From: Planctomycetota bacterium
Lineage (GTDB): Bacteria; Planctomycetota; GCA-002687715; DRQF01
Assembly: GCA_041402125.1 (NCBI GenBank)
Contig: JAWKSY010000022.1
Location: 8,122 to 72,121, forward strand
Reading direction: 5' to 3'
DNA length: 64,000 nucleotides
The stretch's first letter is position 1. Each line of letters begins with the position of its first letter. Positions 40,021 through 50,423 of the stretch are shown in pieces. Below the pieces are notes generated by a model. That model was not told where the DNA came from. It ran no database searches and saw only the letters and a list, made by a program, of their open reading frames with translations. A program made the position numbers and the translations under genes.

Positions 40021-41352
40021 TCAGACCAGGATGCCGTCCGCGGGACGGTCGGCGTCGCCGAGTTGCGCGGTGGGGACGCCGAGCGCCTCGAGGAGCGCCA
40101 GGTGCAGGCCGCACAGCTTGCGGTCGCGGCCGAAGACGAGGTGGCGGCCGCTCGCGAGTCGCCCGCCGAGTCCGCCGGCCACGAGCACGGGAAGGCTCTT
40201 CGGGTCGTGGGCGTTTCCGTCGCCGAGACCCGAGGCGAAGAGGATCGCGGAGTTCTCGAAGAGGGTGGAGTCGCCCTCGGGGATCTCCTTCATCGCCTGG
40301 ATCATCCGCGCGAGCTGCTCGACGTGCCAGCGGTTGATGAGCGCGTACTGCGCCGTCTTCTCCGGCCGGTTCTCGTGGTGGGAGAGCTCGTGGAATCCGC
40401 CCGCGACGCCTTCGAGGAAGCTGAAGTTGAGTCCCGAGACCGCGTTCCCGAACATGAAGCTCGCGACGCGGGTGAGGTCGGCGCGGAAGGCGGCGACGAC
40501 GAGGTCGAGCATCAGCCGCGTCCGCGTGGGGAAGTCGCGCGCGTCCAGTTCGTCCCGTCGCGCCTCCGGCAGGACGGCGTCGGCCGCCAGGCCGAGCCGG
40601 CGACGCTCCTCGGCCTCGTCGCCGGCGCGACGGCGCGCGAAGTCGTCGATGCGACCCTCGAGGGCGTGGACGGAGTCGAGATACTCGTCGACCTTGGCGC
40701 GGTCGCGGCCCGAGAGCGCGCGGGAGAGCGCGCGCGCCTCCTCGAGCACGAGATCGACCACGCGGCGATCTCGCGGTCGCGCGCCGGCCCGCGAGCCGCG
40801 CACCAGGCGTTCGAAGACGAGGCGCGGACGGATCTCCTTCGCGGCGGGGAGGGTGGGGCTGCGCCAGGAGACGTGGGCGCCGTAGACGGTGCTGTAGCCC
40901 ATGTCCACGACGTTGCGCACCGGTTCGGTCCCGAGCTCGAGCGAGGGGATCGGCGTGTCCCGGCCGAGGACCGCCGCGGCGATCTGGTCCATCGTCGTGC
41001 CGCAACGCACGTCGTGTCCGCCGGTCCGCTTGACCCTCGCGCCCGAGAGCAGCGAGGTCGTCTTGACGTAGTGCCCCTCGCCCTCGAAGGCGTTGCGGTT
41101 CCGGAGGCCGGACAGCACGAGGACGCGATCGCGGTGGGGACGCAGCGGCTCGAGCGTCGGCGTGAGCCGGTAGGCGGCGCCCGTCTCCTTCGGCGTCCAG
41201 CTCGGAACGTGCACGCCGTTCGGCATGAAGAGCACCGCCAGCCGTCGCGGCGCGGGGGCGGCGTCCTCGCGGAAGGTCTCGAGACGCGGGAGCGCGAGGG
41301 CGACGCCGGCCGCGCGAAGGAATCGACGTCGGTCCATCGGCGCGCGCATCAT
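40021..41352 (-). CDS. DUF1552-domain protein, Tat signal
   Basis: The product starts MMRAPMDRRRFLRAAGVALALP. Conserved DUF1552 blocks are LAVLFMPNGV, LVLSGLRNR and FMFGNAVSGLNFSFL. The start overlaps the stop of the upstream DUF1592 gene as ATGA. Confidence 0.8.
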   Translation of the reverse strand: MMRAPMDRRRFLRAAGVALALPRLETFREDAAPAPRRLAVLFMPNGVHVPSWTPKETGAAYRLTPTLEPLRPHRDRVLVLSGLRNRNAFEGEGHYVKTTSLLSGARVKRTGGHDVRCGTTMDQIAAAVLGRDTPIPSLELGTEPVRNVVDMGYSTVYGAHVSWRSPTLPAAKEIRPRLVFERLVRGSRAGARPRDRRVVDLVLEEARALSRALSGRDRAKVDEYLDSVHALEGRIDDFARRRAGDEAEERRRLGLAADAVLPEARRDELDARDFPTRTRLMLDLVVAAFRADLTRVASFMFGNAVSGLNFSFLEGVAGGFHELSHHENRPEKTAQYALINRWHVEQLARMIQAMKEIPEGDSTLFENSAILFASGLGDGNAHDPKSLPVLVAGGLGGRLASGRHLVFGRDRKLCGLHLALLEALGVPTAQLGDADRPADGILV

Positions 41353-43220
41353 CGCTTCTCCTCCGCCCGGGGCCGCGTCGTCTCGCGGCGCCGGAAGGTC
41401 TCGCTCGTCACCACCGCGCGCACCAGCGCGCGATAGCCGCCTCCCGCGTCCGCCGTGCGCGCGAGCACGTCGCGCACGGCGGCCTCGTCGGCGAGTCCGA
41501 GCTCGCGTCCGAGGGCGTAGGTCATCATCGCCTTCGCCGCCGCCCGGCGGAAGTCCCCGGCGCGCTCGAGGAGCGCGGCCTTCAGCGCCGCGGGACCCCG
41601 GATCTCGCGACCGTCGGGGAGCGTGGCGCGGTCGTCCACGGGGCGCCCCTGGTCCTCCTCCCGCGCGCGTCCGACCCCGTCGAAGCCCTCGAGCGCGAAT
41701 CCCAGGGGGTCGATGCGGGCGTGGCACGAGGCGCAGGCCGGATCCGCCCGGTGCTTCTCGAGTCGTTGACGCAGCGTGAGCCCGTCCTTCTGGACGTCGT
41801 CCTCGGGCAGCGTTCCGGCATTCGGGGGCGGCGGCGGGGGCGGCGCGTCGAGCAGGGTCTCCAGGATCCAGCGGCCGCGGAGGACGGGGCTCGTGCGCAG
41901 GGGGTAGGAGGTGAGGGTCAGCACCGCGCCCATCCCGAGGACGCCGCCGCGTCGGCGGTCGGTGAGCGCGACCGGACGCAGGGGCCATCCCTCGACGCCC
42001 GCGATCCCGTAGTGCTTCGCGAGCCGCTCGTTCAGCATCGCGAAGTCGGCGTCGAGGATCGTCTCGAGGGGCAGGTCCTCGGTCGCGAGTCGCTGGAAGA
42101 ACCGGACCCCCTCCTCGAAGAGGAGATCCTTCAGGGTCTGGTCGAAGCCCGAGTAACGGCGGAAGTCGACGGCCCGCCGCCGGATCTCGCGAAAGCCGAT
42201 CCACTGGCCGGCGAAGTTCTCGGCGAAGGCGCGCGAACGCGGGGCGGCGAGCAGGCGATCGACCTCGGCCGCCAGGACGGCCTCGTCGCGGAGGCGTCCC
42301 GCGTCCGCGAGGTCGCGGAGGCGGGAGTCCGGCATGGTGGAGGTGAGGAAGTAGGACAGCCGCACCGCGAGCTCGTGGTCATCGAGCGGGCGCGAGTCCG
42401 CCTCCGACTCCGCCGGCGCGTCGCGCTCCACGCGGTAGAGGAAGTGGGGTGAGAGGAGGGCGCTCTGGAGGGCCGCGCGCCGGCCGGCGCGCGGCGAGGG
42501 ATCCTCGGGCCGGACGGCGCAGAGCGCGACCCGGGAGGCGATCTCGCCGCTCGTGGGCGGCCGGCGGAAGGCGCGTCGCAGGAAGGACGCGACGAAGGCC
42601 GCGTCGTCGAGGTCCGGGAGGTAGGCCTTCCTCGCCAGCCCCTCGTCGGCATCGAGCGCGTCGAGGATCTCGACCGTGGCGTCGAAGTACTTCTCGACGA
42701 GGGTGGGGCTCGCGAAGAGGGTGTCGCCGAGGTTGTCGAACCCGCCCGTGGCCGCCTCGGCCGGGAAGCGCTCCGCAGCGTCGAACGTCACCCCGAGCAG
42801 GTCGCGGATCGTCCGGGCGTACTCGTCGGGCGACAGGCGCCGGAGGGTGGGGCGGCCGGGAGAGGCCGGCCCGGACCGCGCCGCCGCGATCCGCTCGAGG
42901 TCCCGGACGAAGGCCTCCACGGCGGCGGCCTCGGGACGGTCCTTCCGGGACGCGGGCGGCATCTCGCCCCGCCCGACGAGCTCGGCCGCCCGGGCGAGGA
43001 GTTCCGGATCACCTTGCGCCGCTTCGAGATCCGTCAGGCCGGCGAAGTCGACGCCGCCCCGGACCCGCCGTCCCGAGTCGTGGCAGTCCGCGCAGTGGCG
43101 ATCGAGGAAGGGACGGACGCGTCCCCAGGCGGCGGCCGGATCCTGCGCCGGGGCGAGCCCGCCGAGCCCGGCGAGGGCGGCGGAAAGAAGGAACAGAAGC
43201 GTCGTCCGGGGGTTGTACAT
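41349..43220 (-). CDS. DUF1592/DUF1595/DUF1587/DUF1588-family protein with N-terminal cytochrome-c-like CxxCH motif (PSD1-like), signal peptide
   Basis: The signal peptide is MYNPRTTLLFLLSAALAGLGG. The heme motif is RHCADCHD. The C-terminal conserved region reads LGMGAVLTLTSYPLRTSPVLRGRWILETLL ... CASCHARIDPLGFALEGFD. The 924-aa track ORF extends upstream through antisense junk. Confidence 0.8.
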   Translation of the reverse strand: MYNPRTTLLFLLSAALAGLGGLAPAQDPAAAWGRVRPFLDRHCADCHDSGRRVRGGVDFAGLTDLEAAQGDPELLARAAELVGRGEMPPASRKDRPEAAAVEAFVRDLERIAAARSGPASPGRPTLRRLSPDEYARTIRDLLGVTFDAAERFPAEAATGGFDNLGDTLFASPTLVEKYFDATVEILDALDADEGLARKAYLPDLDDAAFVASFLRRAFRRPPTSGEIASRVALCAVRPEDPSPRAGRRAALQSALLSPHFLYRVERDAPAESEADSRPLDDHELAVRLSYFLTSTMPDSRLRDLADAGRLRDEAVLAAEVDRLLAAPRSRAFAENFAGQWIGFREIRRRAVDFRRYSGFDQTLKDLLFEEGVRFFQRLATEDLPLETILDADFAMLNERLAKHYGIAGVEGWPLRPVALTDRRRGGVLGMGAVLTLTSYPLRTSPVLRGRWILETLLDAPPPPPPPNAGTLPEDDVQKDGLTLRQRLEKHRADPACASCHARIDPLGFALEGFDGVGRAREEDQGRPVDDRATLPDGREIRGPAALKAALLERAGDFRRAAAKAMMTYALGRELGLADEAAVRDVLARTADAGGGYRALVRAVVTSETFRRRETTRPRAEEKR

Positions 43221-43352
43221 GTATGGCCCTCCCGGCCCTCCGTCCGTCCCCGTAGCTTCTGGAAGAGGCCGGGCCGGTCGGCGACCGGGCCGCGCCGGAC
43301 CGTTCGCGGTGCTATGCTCCGCTCCCGCGCATCCTGAAGGAGACCTCAGCCC

Positions 43353-44129
43353 ATGTCGATCAGATTCCTCGCGCTCGCCGCGCTCCTCGCCTTCGCGTCC
43401 ACGTCCGCCTTCGCCCAGGTCGAGCCCAAGCCGACCCCGGTGAAGCCCGGAGTCGAGAAACCCACCGGCGACGCGCCGGTCAAGCCGGACGCGGCGAAGA
43501 AGGAGGTCACGATCCCCTTCGTCGGCAACGAGAAGTGCCCGCTGACCGGCGAGAAGGTCAACTCGAAGTACTACGCCGAGAAGGACGGCGAGCGCATCTA
43601 CACCTGCTGCGGCGACTGCGCGGCGAAGGTGGAGGCCGACTTCGAGGCCGCCAAGAAGAAGGCCTACCCCGAGGACAAGGTCGTCGAGATCAAGACCGAG
43701 AAGTGCATGATCATGACCCGCAAGGACGTGAAGTCGAACCACTCGGTCACGTTCCAGGGCCACAAGATCAGCTTCTGCTGCAAGCGCTGCGTGAAGACCT
43801 TCAAGTCCGCGCCGCAGAAGTACCTCACCCTCGCGCTCCATCCCGAGCTCGTCGACGCGAAGAACAAGACCTGCCCGGTGATGGACAAGGAGGAGGTCGA
43901 CGCCGACCGCTTCGTCGTCTACGACGGCTTCCTGATCAACCTCTGCTGCAAGAAGTGCCAGGGCGCGTTCAAGAAGGACCCGGAGAAGTACGTCGAGGCG
44001 ATGGGCCTGCGCAAGATGAAGGCGAAGGCGAAGAGCAAGGACGACGACGACGATGATGATGACGACGATCATCACGAGCGTCGTCGCAAGCCGGCCGCGG
44101 GCAAGCCGGCGTCCGGCGATCACGACTGA
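43353..44129 (+). CDS. Secreted protein with three tandem YHS-like metal-binding domains and Asp10-His C-terminal tail
   Basis: The signal peptide is MSIRFLALAALLAFASTSAFAQ. Three repeats of C-P-x-x-G-x-x-V ... CC-x-x-C-x-x-x-F-x-x-x-P-x-K-Y are present: CPLTGEKV..CCGDCAAKV, CMIMTRKDV..CCKRCVKTF and CPVMDKEEV..CCKKCQGAF. The tail reads DDDDDDDDDDHHERRRK. GC3 bias is excellent and the protein is Lys-rich. Confidence 0.7.
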   Translation: MSIRFLALAALLAFASTSAFAQVEPKPTPVKPGVEKPTGDAPVKPDAAKKEVTIPFVGNEKCPLTGEKVNSKYYAEKDGERIYTCCGDCAAKVEADFEAAKKKAYPEDKVVEIKTEKCMIMTRKDVKSNHSVTFQGHKISFCCKRCVKTFKSAPQKYLTLALHPELVDAKNKTCPVMDKEEVDADRFVVYDGFLINLCCKKCQGAFKKDPEKYVEAMGLRKMKAKAKSKDDDDDDDDDDHHERRRKPAAGKPASGDHD

Positions 44130-44236
44130 CGTCGACGCCTGAACTTCCTCTTGCGAAGGAGCCCGTCGGTCCCTTGGGCGGCGGGCTCCTTTCGCGTCTC
44201 GGTCGTCTCCTGCCGCCCCGTTCCGGAGTGCGTCCC

Positions 44237-44599
44237 ATGCCGATCACCCGCCTCGCGCCCATCCTCCCCGTCCGCGACATGTCCGCCGCCGTCGAGTTCT
44301 ACGAGAAGCTGGGCTTCGAGCTCGTGAAGCGCGTCGACGCCTGGAACTGGGCGATGCTCGCCCGCGGCGAGGCGCGGATCATGGTCGATCAGTCGACGAA
44401 TCCGCATCCGGGGACCCGCCGCACCGGCGTCATCTACCTCTACGCCTCGGATCTCATCGCTTTCCATCGCGAGGCGACGGCGCGTGGTCTCGAGCTGCCG
44501 GAGCCGGAACCGACATTCTACGGAATGATCGAGATCCGGATCGAGGATCCCGACGGCAACCGGCTCTGGATCGGCGAGGAGCCGGCGACGGTCGGTTGA
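44237..44599 (+). CDS. VOC-family (glyoxalase/bleomycin-resistance fold) protein
   Basis: The product reads MPITRLAPILPVRDMSAAVEFYEKLGFEL ... YGMIEIRIEDPDGNRLWIGE. The ATG is at 44237. Confidence 0.75.
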   Translation: MPITRLAPILPVRDMSAAVEFYEKLGFELVKRVDAWNWAMLARGEARIMVDQSTNPHPGTRRTGVIYLYASDLIAFHREATARGLELPEPEPTFYGMIEIRIEDPDGNRLWIGEEPATVG

Positions 44600-44747: not shown

Positions 44748-47468
44748 TCACTCCAGTCCGAGTCGCCGGAGCCCGCTCGCGACGTGGAGGTCGCGGGCGT
44801 GCCCGAGATTCGCCTCGTCGACGACGCCCTCGATGCGGACTGCGTGCCAGTGGACCTGCAGGTCGGTGTGCGTCCGCAGGAACACGCGCCCTCCCTGCGT
44901 CGTGGCGCCGCTCAGGGCCGCCACCGGAGCGTCGTCGACCGAGCAGGCGACGCGTCCCTTCTCGTCCCGCACCATCGAGACCCGGTAGCTCCGATCGAAC
45001 TCGAGGGCGAGATCGCCGCCGACGAGCTCGGCGAGCATCCCCTTGCGCAGCGATCCGAGGCAGCTCACCAGCGACGAGATGATGAAACTGCGGCCGCCGT
45101 CGTCGGCGAAGGCGACCCCGAAGTCGAAGGTGTCGGCGCGAGTGCGGTCGCGACCCGAGCTGTCGACCGAGATCGTGTACTCGATCGCGATCCGACCGGT
45201 CAGCGGCAGTCGCCAGATGGCCGCGGCCGACCCGCTCATCACGAGTCCGGACTCGTTGATCTCGAAGGTCGGCTTGCGGCCGAGGATGGCGGTGGCGAGA
45301 TCCTGCTCGGGGCCGAGGTTGCCCGGGTAGGCGGCGTCCACCGTGAAGTCCGCGAGCTGCGCCGGGTCCTTGAAGTCGTAGTCCACGCGGAGGCGCTTTT
45401 TACCCAGGTCCTCGACCTTGCCCCGGAGGCCCCATCCGGCCGACGGATCGGCATCGAAGGTCATCGCGAGGAGATGCCGGGCGAAGCCCCGTCGCGCCTC
45501 GGCATCGGGAAGGTCCGCGATCTTCTCGCCCTCCGCGAGGCGTTCCATGGCATCGAGCCGCGCGCGGGCCTGCGCGGCGTCGGTGACGGGGGCGTGGTCG
45601 AAGGCGGAGAGGAAGTCGGCCAGGCGACGTCCGTCGGCGAGATCGCGGCGGATCGCCGGCGCCGCCTTCGCGAGGCCGTGGCCGCCGGGACCGATCTCGC
45701 GCTCCTTCCCCGGATCGGTGAGGAGGAGGAGGTAGGCCTCGATCCACTCCCGATCGTCCCGCATCATCTTGCGCCGGCGGGCCAGCTTCATGAGTCCGTC
45801 GACGCCGAGGTCGGACCAGGAGAGGAACTCGCCCTTGTCGAGCTCGATCCCCTCGTCGGTCCTCCCCGCCGCGCGACGACTGACGGTCTTGCCGCTCTCC
45901 GCGTCCGTGACCCGGAAGAACCAGCGCTCCTCGACGGCCCGCTCGCCGAACTCGCGCCGGAAGGCGAGCAGCTCCTCGAGGCGGGCCTTCTCCGCCGTGG
46001 CGGCGGCATCGGCCGGCGCGGCGAGCATCGCGAGGGCGTCGCGGATGGAGCCGCGCGCCGCCGCCTGACGCGCCGCGGTCAGGCGGTGGGCGGCGAGCTT
46101 CTCCGCCGGGACCAGCTTCGAGACGTCGTAGCCGCCGACCTCCTCGAGACCGCGCGGTCCGGAGCGTTTCGGTCCCTCGGTGACGAGCGACTTGAGGTCG
46201 GCGCGCGTCACCTCGCCGACGACCTCTCCGTTGCCGAGACGGAGCTTCACGAGCGCGTCGGTCGGTCGGCCCGCCAGGCGGGCGACGTGGGTCAGGAAAC
46301 GGCGCTCGAGCTGCACGAGATCGATCTCGCCGAGCGTGCTGAAGAACGCGTCCTTGGGCGCGAGACCGGACTGCGCGGCCGTGACGTAGCGGTGGAAGAC
46401 GTCGCGGTAGGCGCCGTCCTCGCCCTCCTCCAGGAACTGCACGAGGAGGAAGGACTGCGTGTAGAGGAACTCCAGCGAGGCCGACACCGCGAGCGGATTC
46501 GAGGAACGCTTCAGGGCCCGCAGGGCGGACTGCTGGTAGCTGTCGATCTCGACGAGATCCCGGATGGGGTGGATGAGCGGACGCATCGCATCCGATTCCA
46601 GCGCCTCGACGAACCGCTGGATGCGCGTGCGGTGATAGTCCGATCGGGCCAGGTCGCGGGGCGGTTCGGAACCCAGGTAGTCGGCCATTCCCTCCGCGTA
46701 CCAGATCGGCTTCGGCATCGCGTCGTCGCCCTGGCACCAGGCGTGCTGGAGCTGGTGCGCGAACTCGTGGAGGATGGCCGAGCGCTTCTCCTCGTCGAGG
46801 AACTGACGGTCCGTCGTCGAGAAGCTCCGCTCCCAGGTCACCGCGAGCCGGTTCTTGAACTGGTAGTGCGCGCGCGAGGACATCCCCTCGTAGCCCTGCG
46901 CCGTCATGTAGTCGTCGTAGGCGCCCTTCGAGGAGAGGATCGCGAGGCAGTAGTAGCCGAAGCCCTCGCGCAGCTTCAGTCCGAGCGGCTCGGCGTAGCG
47001 CTCGCGGAAGCCCTTCTCGAGACGGGTGAGCAGTTCGGCGTAGCCCTTCGCCAGCTCGTCGTAGTACGCGTCCTCGTCCTTCGGCGGCCGCTGGACGATG
47101 AAGAAGAAGGGCAGGGCCTCGACCTCCCGGTAGTCGACCGCCTTCAGGTAGGGATCCCGGTGGAGGGCGCGACGCACCTCGAAGTGACCGAGCCGCTTCG
47201 GATCGGAACGGATGAACTCGATCCTCGCCTTGACCTCCTTCACGTGGCTCGCCCAGGCCTCTCGTTCGGCGGCGAGCGCCCTGGCGTCGAGCTTCTTGCC
47301 CTCGATCTCCTTCCACCGCTTCGTGTCGAAGAGGATGGACCAGGTGCCGAGGTCGGCCTTGTCGAAGTCCTCGAGGTGCTCGTAGGGATCGAAGGTGACC
47401 GAGCGTTGCGCACGGAGCCCCGTCGAGGTCACGGCGATCACGAGGATCGCGATAGCGATGCGGATCAT
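44748..47468 (-). CDS. Large secreted protein (906 aa) with HExxH...E putative zinc-metallopeptidase motif; paralog A of a divergent pair
   Basis: The signal peptide is MIRIAIAILVIAVTSTGLRAQ. The HExxH motif is ILHEFAHQLQHAW, followed by WYAEGMADYLGS. It is paralogous over its whole length to 47709-50423. The 1942-aa track ORF is an artefact. Confidence 0.7.
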   Translation of the reverse strand: MIRIAIAILVIAVTSTGLRAQRSVTFDPYEHLEDFDKADLGTWSILFDTKRWKEIEGKKLDARALAAEREAWASHVKEVKARIEFIRSDPKRLGHFEVRRALHRDPYLKAVDYREVEALPFFFIVQRPPKDEDAYYDELAKGYAELLTRLEKGFRERYAEPLGLKLREGFGYYCLAILSSKGAYDDYMTAQGYEGMSSRAHYQFKNRLAVTWERSFSTTDRQFLDEEKRSAILHEFAHQLQHAWCQGDDAMPKPIWYAEGMADYLGSEPPRDLARSDYHRTRIQRFVEALESDAMRPLIHPIRDLVEIDSYQQSALRALKRSSNPLAVSASLEFLYTQSFLLVQFLEEGEDGAYRDVFHRYVTAAQSGLAPKDAFFSTLGEIDLVQLERRFLTHVARLAGRPTDALVKLRLGNGEVVGEVTRADLKSLVTEGPKRSGPRGLEEVGGYDVSKLVPAEKLAAHRLTAARQAAARGSIRDALAMLAAPADAAATAEKARLEELLAFRREFGERAVEERWFFRVTDAESGKTVSRRAAGRTDEGIELDKGEFLSWSDLGVDGLMKLARRRKMMRDDREWIEAYLLLLTDPGKEREIGPGGHGLAKAAPAIRRDLADGRRLADFLSAFDHAPVTDAAQARARLDAMERLAEGEKIADLPDAEARRGFARHLLAMTFDADPSAGWGLRGKVEDLGKKRLRVDYDFKDPAQLADFTVDAAYPGNLGPEQDLATAILGRKPTFEINESGLVMSGSAAAIWRLPLTGRIAIEYTISVDSSGRDRTRADTFDFGVAFADDGGRSFIISSLVSCLGSLRKGMLAELVGGDLALEFDRSYRVSMVRDEKGRVACSVDDAPVAALSGATTQGGRVFLRTHTDLQVHWHAVRIEGVVDEANLGHARDLHVASGLRRLGLE

Positions 47469-47708: not shown

Positions 47709-50423
47709 ATGTTCCGTCTCGCCCTTCTGGCCCTCCTGCTGACGACCGCCGGCTCGGTCGTCGCCCAGACGCGCTCCTTCGACCCCTGGAAGGACCTCAC
47801 CGGCTACGAGGAGGCGACGCGCGGCGAGTGGCAGTCCTTCTGCGACGTCGAGAAGTGGCGGGCGCGGCTCGGACTCGAGGTGGACGCGGCCGGGCTGGCG
47901 CGCCTCCGGGAGGAATGGACGGCGGAGAAGAAGGCGATCGACGAGAAGATCGTCGCGATCCTCGCCGACCCCCACGGGCGCTCGCGATTCCACCTCCGTC
48001 GGGTGCTCGAGTCCGACCCCTACCTGAAGGCGGTCGATTACCGCGAGATCGAGATCGCTCCCTTCTGCTTCGTCATCCAGCGTCCGCCGAAGGACGATCC
48101 GGAGTACTACCAGGACGTGGCGGATGCCTACGCCGGGGTGCTCCGCGACGTGGAGAAGGACTTCCGTCGGCTCCTGGTGGAACCCCTGAAGCTGACCCTG
48201 CGGCCGAAGCACGGTTTCTTCGGACTCGTCATCCTCGCCTCGGAGGGGAGCTACGTCGACTTCCTGAAGGCGCACCGGATCGCGACCGTGGCGAGCCGGG
48301 CGCACTACGATCCCGCGACGCGGCTGTCCGTGAGCTGGGAGCGGAGTTTCGGGCGCGGCTCCGCGAAGCACCTCGACGAGGAGAAGCGGATCGCCCTGCG
48401 CCACGAGCTGGTCCACGCGCTGCAATGGGCCTACATCGCGCGCCCGGCCGGAAAGCGACTCCCGGTCTGGCTCTCGGAAGGACTGGCCGAGTTCTTCGCG
48501 TACGGCCCGGGCGCGGATCCCGCCCCGGATTCGCTGGCGGCGCTTCGGATCCGCAACGTGCTCGACCTGCTCGCGTCCGAGACGGGTCAGCGTTACCTCC
48601 ATCCGATCCCGGATCTCGTCGAGATCCAGAGCTACGCCCAGTCGACGGACTTCGCGAAGCGACGGACCCAGGACCCCCGGGCGGAAGGGCGAGAGGTCGG
48701 CGGGCTCTACGGGCTCTCCTATCTCCTCGTCGAGTTCCTGCACGAGGCCCGGGGCGGCGCCTACCGCCCGCGCTTGCTCGACCTCGTCCGTCGGCTGGGC
48801 GCGGGGGAGGAGGCGGCGGCCGCCTTCTCGGGCGCCTTCGAGGGCATCTCGCCGGAGACGCTCGAGGCCGAGCTCATCGAGCGCGCCGCGCGCCTCGGGA
48901 GACGCGATCTCGCCGAGTTCGAGCACCGCAGTCTCGGCGGCGGCGTCCGCGTCGGATCGACCGCCCGGCCCGACGCCGCGGTGGCGGAGACGGCGCCGGC
49001 GGGGAAGCGTCGTCCGCCGCTCGGCCTGACGCCGGCCGAGCCCGTCGATTTCCGCTTCTTCGGCTCGATCTACACCTCGCCGGATTCCGGACGGATCGCG
49101 GTGCGCAAGATGCTCGCCGCCTTCGACATCGAGGGGGCGGAGCGGTTGCTCGCGCCCGTCAAGATCCAGCGGGCCTACGAGATCGGGCGGGAGGCCGCCC
49201 GACTCGCCAAGCTCAAGCGGGCCTTCGACGTGGTCGGGACCCGCGCGATCGAGGAGCGCTGGCTGGTTCCGGTCGAGGTCGACGGGAAGCGCGTGCATCG
49301 AAGGGTGCAGGCGGTGCACGACGACGGGCTCGAGCTCGATCGCGTCGGGCGCATCCGCTGGTCCGATCTCGGCGCGGCCGAGTTCCAGAAGCTCGGTCGC
49401 AAGAAGAAGATCTTCACCGGCGCCCTCGCCGAGCTCGACGACTACCTGCGGCTCCTGTCGGATCCGGAGGGCGCGAGGATCGCGGACGACGCCGAGAAGG
49501 AGATCAGGCAGGACGCGGAGAGGATCCGGGCCGACGTCCTCGATCCCCGCCCCTGGCTCGCCTACCGGCGCCTCTCCGCGGCGGTCTTCATCGACGACCC
49601 CGAGGTCGCCCGGCGGCGCCTCGCCGATCTCGAGGAGGTCTGCCGCGACGAGGTCCTCGTCGCGACCGTCGATCGCGAGAAGCTGGTCGAGTACGCGACC
49701 GCGCTCCTGAAGCTCGCCTTCCGGTGCGACGCCGGAACCAACTACGGTCTCGTCCGTCCGGTCGAGACGACGCCCGAGGGGCGCCTCCGCGTGAGCTACG
49801 ACTTCGCCGACGAGGCCCAGCTCGCCGACTTCCACTTCGGTTCCTATCCCCATGCGCTCTCGGACGAGGTCGACCTCTCGATCGGAGGCGGCGCGGTCCC
49901 TCGGATCCGGGCCCTCGCCAACGGCGGGCTCGAGGTGTCGGGCTCGGCGACCGGGCTCTGGCGTCTGCCGCTGAAGGGGAGGGTCATGGTGAGCTACCGC
50001 GTCGCCATCATCGAGGTGGCGAAGGGGAAGCTGGGTCGCCTCGACTTCGGCGCCGGGCTCGCGGACGACGGCGGCAAGAGCTTCCTCCTCGCCTCGCTCA
50101 ACGGTTCGCTCGCGGAGTTCCGCGGCGGCGTGATGACGAAGGTCGCCTCGACGACGTTCGCCCATCCGCGCGTCCTCGAGGACTACCAGGTGACGGTCGT
50201 TCGCGCGCCCGAGGGCGGGATCACCGCCCACGTCGACGGCGAGCTCGCGTCCGAGATCGAGAACACCACGGCGGACGGCGGCCGGATCTTCCTGCGCGCG
50301 CACACCGCCGCCCGGATCCGCTGGCTCGGGCTCGTCATCGAGGGCGAGCTCGACCGGGAGAACCTCGGGCACGCGCGCGACGCCTGGGTGGCGGCCGGCC
50401 TGCGACGACTGGGTCTGAACTGA
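47709..50423 (+). CDS. Large secreted protein (904 aa) with HExxH...E putative zinc-metallopeptidase motif; paralog B of a divergent pair
   Basis: The signal peptide is MFRLALLALLLTTAGSVVAQ. The HExxH motif is LRHELVHALQWAY, followed by WLSEGLAEFFAYG. Blocks shared with paralog A include DPYLKAVDYRE, FVIQRPPKD, SWERSF and the C-terminal GGRIFLRAHT ... ENLGHARD ... GLRRLGL. Confidence 0.7.
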   Translation: MFRLALLALLLTTAGSVVAQTRSFDPWKDLTGYEEATRGEWQSFCDVEKWRARLGLEVDAAGLARLREEWTAEKKAIDEKIVAILADPHGRSRFHLRRVLESDPYLKAVDYREIEIAPFCFVIQRPPKDDPEYYQDVADAYAGVLRDVEKDFRRLLVEPLKLTLRPKHGFFGLVILASEGSYVDFLKAHRIATVASRAHYDPATRLSVSWERSFGRGSAKHLDEEKRIALRHELVHALQWAYIARPAGKRLPVWLSEGLAEFFAYGPGADPAPDSLAALRIRNVLDLLASETGQRYLHPIPDLVEIQSYAQSTDFAKRRTQDPRAEGREVGGLYGLSYLLVEFLHEARGGAYRPRLLDLVRRLGAGEEAAAAFSGAFEGISPETLEAELIERAARLGRRDLAEFEHRSLGGGVRVGSTARPDAAVAETAPAGKRRPPLGLTPAEPVDFRFFGSIYTSPDSGRIAVRKMLAAFDIEGAERLLAPVKIQRAYEIGREAARLAKLKRAFDVVGTRAIEERWLVPVEVDGKRVHRRVQAVHDDGLELDRVGRIRWSDLGAAEFQKLGRKKKIFTGALAELDDYLRLLSDPEGARIADDAEKEIRQDAERIRADVLDPRPWLAYRRLSAAVFIDDPEVARRRLADLEEVCRDEVLVATVDREKLVEYATALLKLAFRCDAGTNYGLVRPVETTPEGRLRVSYDFADEAQLADFHFGSYPHALSDEVDLSIGGGAVPRIRALANGGLEVSGSATGLWRLPLKGRVMVSYRVAIIEVAKGKLGRLDFGAGLADDGGKSFLLASLNGSLAEFRGGVMTKVASTTFAHPRVLEDYQVTVVRAPEGGITAHVDGELASEIENTTADGGRIFLRAHTAARIRWLGLVIEGELDRENLGHARDAWVAAGLRRLGLN

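Follow-up and report, generated by a model that had tools for sequence, protein, structure and literature searches.

A secreted protein with three tandem YHS/TRASH-like domains and an Asp10-His2 tail from a Planctomycetota bacterium

The gene and its product

The 64,000-nucleotide stretch of DNA analysed here (the window; Planctomycetota bacterium, GenBank assembly GCA_041402125.1, contig JAWKSY010000022.1, positions 8,122 to 72,121 of the forward strand) contains, at 43353-44129 on the plus strand, an open reading frame (ORF) of 258 amino acids (aa) whose product combines a signal peptide, three Cys-rich YHS/TRASH-like domains and an Asp10-His2 tract. The ORF was confirmed as coding, with coordinates exactly those of an earlier sequence-only reading, since its codon-position GC content of 0.57/0.39/0.94 (GC3 0.94) is a clear coding signature in a window of ~71% GC. 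An identical protein is on deposit as hypothetical protein R3F20_18035, from a Planctomycetota metagenome-assembled genome (MAG).

The first 21 residues (43353..43415), MSIRFLALAALLAFASTSAFA, are read from the sequence, without a predictor, as a Sec-type signal peptide with the typical n/h/c layout and an AxA cleavage site, cleavage falling after AFA and before Q; in the structure model described below, the predicted local distance difference test score (pLDDT) of this segment is <50. A disordered Pro/Lys-rich linker follows (aa 22-54, 43416..43514; pLDDT 54-68), and both its length and its sequence differ between homologues in alignment A2. Domain 1 (aa 55-108, 43515..43676; pLDDT 95-98) contains PFxGN-x2-C62, C85 C86 x2 C89 and, at its end, the conserved AKAYP junction (A104, Y105). 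Domain 2 (aa 111-164, 43683..43844) contains C118 in the sequence CMIM, Q135-G136 and C142 C143 x2 C146, and domain 3 (aa 167-216, 43851..44000) contains N171-x2-C174, C198 C199 x2 C202 and F-x3-P-x-K-Y. Behind the domains, a Lys-rich helical segment (aa 217-229, MGLRKMKAKAKSK, 44001..44039; helix predicted at 219-232, with pLDDT falling from ~82 to 63) leads into the Asp10-His2 tract (aa 230-241, 44040..44075), and the protein closes with a basic disordered end (aa 242-258, ERRRKPAAGKPASGDHD, with the stop codon 44076..44129; pLDDT ~58).

The 12 Cys residues fall into three identical sets (62/85/86/89, 118/142/143/146 and 174/198/199/202), one in each Cys-rich repeat of ~55 residues, and a six-frame search of the window shows the pattern C-x19-25-CC-x2-C nowhere else. 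BLASTP between the repeats gives E=8e-14 for repeats 2 and 3 and E=4e-6 for repeats 1 and 3. Domain 1 is counted as homologous to the other two because of the comparison of subfamily domain profiles by hhalign, in which all three pairs score 98.8-99.4% probability with E values of 1e-16 to 2e-21, those of domain 1 with domains 2 and 3 being 1e-17 and 1e-16. The signal peptide and three tandem repeats described in the sequence-only reading are borne out by these data, as is the Lys-rich composition (39 of 258 residues, or 15%; mature pI 8.3). The motifs that it proposed hold in part: C-P-x-x-G-x-x-V opens repeat 1 alone, but not repeat 2 (CMIMTRKDV) or repeat 3 (CPVMDKEEV), whereas F-x3-P-x-K-Y is present in repeats 2 and 3 and not in repeat 1. 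Likewise, the proposed Asp10-His tail is present as D230-D239 followed by H240-H241, but the chain does not end there and runs past ...HHERRRK into PAAGKPASGDHD.

Domain identity and predicted fold

The assignment of the repeats to the YHS/TRASH type stands in searches with hidden Markov models (HMMs). The whole protein matches Pfam YHS (PF04945) at 41.3 bits (gathering cutoff 30.3, E 1.5e-10) over two stretches and TRASH_HVO_1752_C at 28.6 bits (cutoff 27) over three, and Pfam Ta0938 scores 26.6 bits. When the domains are scanned singly, domains 2 and 3 score 27.8 and 23.5 bits with YHS, both under 30.3, and domain 1 matches Ta0938 only, at 22.3 bits. No NCBIfam model passes for the protein; NF041384, the model for YHS domain-containing (seleno)proteins, gives 14.2 bits (E 0.04), under its 70-bit cutoff. 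An unrelated disulfide-rich family, which had been named as the competing assignment, was not found in the Pfam, NCBIfam or PDB sequence searches. The PDB sequence search yielded no true relative, returning low-complexity matches to the poly-Asp tract and a marginal phenol hydroxylase at E ~1.

The ligand set of YHS/TRASH domains comprises four positions, [D/C]-x2-C...C-x3-C (Linder 2015, PMC4626032). Every domain has the three Cys positions of this set, each with a conservation of at least 90%. The TRASH motif was reportedly defined by Ettema et al. in 2003 as C-X19-22-C-X3-C; domain 1 reads C62-x22-C85-x3-C89, and the first spacing in domains 2 and 3 is x23, one residue past the x19-22 range.

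A structure model was obtained with AlphaFold2 from a 42-sequence alignment, with a pLDDT of 92-98 for residues 51-220 and a predicted template modelling score (pTM) of 0.69. Each domain is modelled as the same beta-hairpin plus two helices, and the three together as one rigid unit; the signal peptide, the linker and the tail are disordered. At the level of single domains, weak fold matches were obtained to the phenol/toluene hydroxylase alpha subunits (YHS), ribosomal L24e (TRASH), zinc fingers and NosL, which is consistent with the predicted domain being a treble-clef-like YHS/TRASH module. No solved structure of a tandem-YHS protein is among the sequence or fold matches.

Family and conservation

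An exhaustive HMMER search with a four-sequence profile against 1.84 billion cluster representatives returned 7328 matches at E<=1e-3, of which 1820 reach E<=1e-10 and 138 reach E<=1e-30, and ~100 proteins of 190-280 aa match all three domains in a single stretch. Among 259 relatives that were fetched, a signal-like N-terminus is present in 235, and the number of CCxxC-type repeats per protein is two in 126, three in 81 and four in 20; most of the three-repeat proteins (72 of 81) are 180-300 aa long with a signal-like N-terminus. The earlier view that a stand-alone periplasmic triple array is unusual is contradicted by the 1820 matches at E<=1e-10 and by the 81 relatives with exactly three repeats. 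Several relatives carry the NCBI or JGI name 'YHS domain-containing protein', and no experimentally characterised secreted tandem-YHS protein turned up in the literature searched. Long arrays, with six to nine CCxxC-type YHS repeats per secreted protein, were also seen (P0122 of 2065 aa, P0125 of 597 aa, P0126 and P0169).

Sequence comparison places the window protein in a subfamily that, in this analysis, is confined to Planctomycetota. It shares 32-50% identity over the whole core (165-225 aa) with 35 cluster representatives, and all 11 matches of a 10-sequence profile in species-representative genomes are Planctomycetota MAGs. The subfamily layout consists of a signal peptide, a variable linker, three YHS/TRASH-like domains and a variable tail, and its signatures are PF[FVY]GN-x2-C(P), AKAYP at the junction of domains 1 and 2, Q-G before the CC pair of domain 2 and N-x2-CP at domain 3. 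All of these are present in the window protein, with full-length collinear similarity.

Residue conservation was counted over 36 subfamily sequences. G58, N59, C62, Y105, C118, C142, C146 and C174 are invariant, and a conservation of at least 90% is seen for C85, C89, C143, N171, C198 and C202; the second Cys of the CC pairs (C86, C143 and C199) is kept in 27, 34 and 32 sequences, respectively. Three residues before the first Cys, the subfamily has Asn where distant relatives have Gln: in addition to the invariant N59, Asn stands at the equivalent position in 32 sequences for domain 2 and in 34 for domain 3. Domain 2 of the window protein departs from the subfamily in two places, with Thr replacing Asn before C118 and CMIM replacing CPxM. 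Two inter-domain motifs, AKAYP and LALA-x2-P, are conserved. Because the subfamily core is generally basic and Lys-rich (median pI 8.7, 12.9% Lys), the Lys-rich character of the window protein can be regarded as a family trait. The window protein is a new and typical member of the secreted tandem-YHS proteins, a family that is annotated but still uncharacterised.

The C-terminal tail

The codons of the Asp10 tract form a near-perfect (GAC/GAT) array, detected by TRF at 44040-44068 with a period of 3 and 9.7 copies, and the tract may be a recent expansion because a trinucleotide array of this kind encodes it. The array is also a possibly slippage-prone, length-variable region. The Asp tract is missing in 34 of the 36 subfamily members, in which the three Cys domains are conserved, and one member, P0150, has an Asp-rich tail that is longer than that of the window protein. 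The tail is hypervariable in the subfamily: many members have a short one or none, P0133 and P0159 have His-rich tails, that of P0160 is rich in Cys and Gly, and P0144 has an HMBD domain (49 bits, cutoff 23.6) in its place. This recurrence of metal-binding appendages at the tail position gives circumstantial support for metal handling. As far as the compared sequences indicate, the Asp-rich tail is rare, not unique, and is the sole unusual feature of the window protein.

Genomic context of the relatives

The distant secreted tandem-YHS relatives adjoin heavy-metal efflux genes in all seven loci examined; in six of them, an OEP gene is directly upstream or, for P0057, one gene downstream. In P0018, P0060 and P0071, the YHS gene lies between an OEP gene and genes for CusB (with HMBD) and CusA, which is the slot of cusF, with a few other genes between the YHS gene and CusB in P0071. 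The YHS gene immediately follows an OEP gene in P0004 and P0026 and directly follows OEP-CusB-CusA in P0035; in P0057, an OEP gene and a multicopper oxidase gene lie one gene downstream of it, with a gene for a cation diffusion facilitator (CDF) transporter nearby. By analogy, the position of these proteins suggests an undescribed Cys-based analogue of CusF. Named by locus, these seven are L022, L024 and L021, with the order OEP-YHS-CusB(HMBD)-CusA, L009, with the YHS gene after OEP-CusB-CusA, and L003, L023 and L007, with an OEP gene adjacent to the YHS gene or one gene away.

Within the subfamily, two independent loci tie the YHS gene to metal efflux. In L018, the YHS gene has a 4-nt overlap with the end of a resistance-nodulation-division (RND) pump gene and is followed by the gene of an HMBD-bearing P1B ATPase; L037 is a near-identical copy of this locus. 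In L029, the YHS gene directly follows a different RND gene, which shares 35-37% identity with its L018 counterpart.

The subfamily loci otherwise fall into clade-specific syntenic groups and singletons. One group belongs to a clade of soil Planctomycetota (L014, L016, L017, L025, L026, L030-L036, L042 and L044), in which a gene for an AAA_2/ClpB_D2-small ATPase, the YHS gene, a gene of ~295 aa without a Pfam match and a TPR gene stand in this order, with gaps of 46 nt between the first two and 20 nt between the YHS gene and the ~295-aa gene; the arrangement is a possible operon. A second clade (L006, L011, L012, L013, L020 and L028) has, directly upstream and on the same strand, a gene for a small lipoprotein of ~139-164 aa with an L-x-x-C lipobox, and a kinase-like gene and a TonB-dependent receptor gene nearby, the latter of which immediately follows the YHS gene in L011. 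A third context is a divergent glutamate dehydrogenase (GluDH) gene. No homologue of any of these clade-specific neighbours was found in the window.

Genomic context in the window

The translation start of the window gene is preceded, 9 nt 5' of the ATG, by a Shine-Dalgarno-like element read from the sequence, GAAGGAGA (43336..43343, plus strand), in a divergent intergenic region of 132 bp (43221-43352). No sigma-70 consensus promoter was found in 43150-44300, and no plus-strand terminator was detected around the gene. A long antisense ORF at 41349..44123 was also considered, and its portion past 43220 was judged spurious.

The gene on the other side of this region, at 41349-43220 on the minus strand, encodes a PSD/DUF1592 protein of 623 aa with two CxxCH haem-type motifs (CADCH and CASCH). 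Together with DUF1552/HXXSHH it forms a pair at 40021-43220 on the minus strand, which is a typical planctomycete gene pair. The divergent arrangement pointed out in the sequence-only reading is indeed present, but the linkage is not meaningful, as it occurs in none of 31 related loci; a link to the DUF1592/DUF1552 pair was dropped after tblastn over these loci found the pair in the window alone. On its 3' side, the YHS gene is followed by a glyoxalase-family gene (44237-44599). Farther on, two divergent paralogues at 44748-47468 (minus strand) and 47709-50423 (plus strand) encode proteins of ~905 aa that are 36-39% identical, have signal-like N-termini and lack a Pfam match. Both carry HExxH at the same place (HEFAH at 234 and HELVH at 232, respectively), and from these sequence features they may represent a novel family of secreted zinc metallopeptidases.

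Proposed function

The reading that we favour, with moderate confidence, is that the window protein is an exported thiolate metal-binding protein with three sites that buffers soft metals in the periplasm or acts as a chaperone for them. Here metal binding itself, the identity of the metal, the stoichiometry, the role as chaperone or buffer and the role of the tail are inferred. Of the earlier proposal of a periplasmic Cu/Zn buffer or chaperone, metal handling stands as the best reading, from the operon context of the relatives and their fusions, but the choice between Cu and Zn is not decidable from sequence. Our best guess for the ligand is Cu(I), which is favoured because of the associations of the relatives with Cus, CopA and multicopper oxidase proteins; Zn, Cd, Ag and Hg are also candidates.

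Following Sec export, the protein would be a soluble periplasmic one, in which a flexible linker precedes a rigid rod of three treble-clef-like YHS/TRASH modules. Each module would provide a Cys-thiolate site composed of one Cys and, 22-23 residues on, Cys-Cys-x2-Cys, with Asn (Thr in module 2) standing at the canonical first Asp/Cys ligand position. Soft, thiophilic metal ions could be bound reversibly, up to about three per protein, and held for, or handed to, transporters of the envelope. The Asp10-His2 tail may be a lineage-specific accessory, standing where relatives have metal-capturing appendages of other kinds, and its probable contribution is the low-affinity capture of cations or electrostatic docking to the Lys-rich body.

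Several observations weigh against this proposal. Most subfamily loci are without metal genes and lie in unrelated syntenic groups. In the window itself, the YHS gene has no gene for metal transport or metal regulation near it: tblastn with RND, CusB, OEP, P1B-ATPase, multicopper oxidase, CDF and TonB-dependent receptor queries found nothing, and the gene is not embedded in a CusF-type operon of OEP, membrane fusion protein (MFP) and RND genes. The first position of the YHS/TRASH ligand set is occupied by N59, T115 and N171 instead of Asp or Cys. In addition, the four Cys residues of a domain could form two disulfides in the oxidising periplasm, and no metal-bound YHS structure is among the PDB and fold matches. 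In toluene monooxygenase, the YHS region contains no metal (PMC4626032). The main caveats are the Asn at the first ligand position and the scarcity of metal genes near subfamily members.

In an alternative reading, the domains would be structural zinc or disulfide knuckles and the protein would be a basic, Lys-rich periplasmic adaptor for a partner protein or an anionic envelope polymer, its acidic tail being an intramolecular or partner-docking element. The TRASH domain of ribosomal L24e is such a structural site (PMC4626032). The consistently basic core of the subfamily, the prediction of the three domains as a rigid unit with conserved AKAYP and LALA-x2-P between them, the many loci without metal genes and the retention of the AAA_2-YHS-unknown-TPR order in one well-sampled clade all fit an adaptor. 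However, this explanation accounts neither for the distant relatives in the cusF slot of heavy-metal efflux RND (HME-RND) operons nor for the RND and P1B-ATPase linkage in L018 and L029, and it leaves the recurrent HMBD, His-rich and Cys-rich tails unexplained; we consider it unlikely.

Each domain has four Cys, among them a CxxC-like C-x2-C element, and the protein is exported into an oxidising compartment, features that would also suit a periplasmic thiol-disulfide redox protein, the CC-x2-C clusters of which would cycle, for example in Cu(II) reduction or disulfide exchange. Periplasmic Cys-rich copper proteins such as CopG are oxidoreductases. Against such a role, sequence and fold searches gave no thioredoxin-like or Dsb-family similarity, the replacement of C86 in 9 of 36 homologues leaves odd Cys counts, and the predicted fold is treble-clef/zinc-ribbon-like rather than a redox fold, so that we hold it to be quite improbable. 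Finally, ten consecutive Asp and two His residues, together with the still longer Asp-rich tail of P0150, could make the tail the functional centre, as a binder of hard cations (Ca2+/Mg2+/Fe3+/Mn2+) or of mineral surfaces, but this is highly improbable: the tail is missing in 34 of 36 members that conserve the Cys domains, the structure model shows it as disordered and its coding sequence is a slippage-prone trinucleotide array.

Relation to known systems

The closest counterparts of the window protein are the uncharacterised secreted tandem-YHS proteins, which share its layout, 32-50% core identity and the PF[FVY]GN, AKAYP and N-x2-CP signatures. It differs from them in its Asp10-His2 tail, matched in kind by P0150 only, and in its gene neighbourhood.

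A functional analogy can be drawn with CusF of E. coli, the periplasmic Cu(I)/Ag(I) chaperone of cusCFBA, which is also small, secreted and soluble and the slot of which, between OEP and CusB/CusA-like genes or just after them, is held by the distant tandem-YHS relatives. CusF is an OB-fold protein with a Met2-His-Trp site, whereas the window protein has Cys-based treble-clef-like modules in triplicate and its gene lies outside such an operon. No match of CusF to the window protein was obtained by sequence (Pfam, NCBIfam and PDB) or by fold search.

Archaeal CopM, a stand-alone TRASH protein of the copTMA cluster, is a proposed copper chaperone for a P1B ATPase (PMC5328820). The likeness lies in the use of TRASH/YHS modules alone and in the P1B ATPase that also adjoins the YHS gene at L018. 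In contrast to the single-domain, cytoplasmic, archaeal CopM, the window protein is triple-domain, secreted and bacterial, with no ATPase link in the window. Its mode of action may resemble that of CusF or CopM, although it is a member of neither of these families.

The YHS domains of Cu-ATPases, of a Mycobacterium phlei adenylyl cyclase and of toluene/phenol hydroxylase alpha subunits, and the TRASH domain of L24e, belong to the same superfamily by HMM, with weak fold matches, and have the same Cys...Cys-x3-Cys ligand framework (PMC4626032). The enzyme and transporter domains are single, cytoplasmic and appended, with Asp or Cys as the first ligand, whereas the window family has Asn or Thr at this position and an extra adjacent Cys that forms the CC pair.

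Implications

For annotation, the gain is that a hypothetical protein can be named a 'secreted triple YHS/TRASH-domain putative metal-binding protein'; no new kind of system is involved. With the window gene, a large family of exported multi-YHS proteins, none of them characterised in the literature searched, gains a further member, distinguished by its unusual Asp10-His2 tail. The stronger lead is the wider family, that is, the tandem-YHS proteins in the cusF slot of HME-RND operons, rather than the window gene.

Tentatively, and with less confidence than we attach to metal binding by the window protein, tandem-YHS proteins could be an unrecognised, widespread class of Cys-based periplasmic metallochaperones analogous to CusF, of which the Planctomycetota subfamily would be a stand-alone three-site buffer released from the operon. 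Such proteins, mostly from uncultured lineages, may work for HME-RND pumps and P1B ATPases, and their interchangeable HMBD, His-rich, Cys-Gly-rich and poly-Asp appendages may tune which cations are captured. If the inferred metal-handling role is right, the family would represent a Cys-based alternative to the CusF-type periplasmic copper chaperones and would bear on how Planctomycetota, Verrucomicrobiota and further phyla with few cultured members resist metals.

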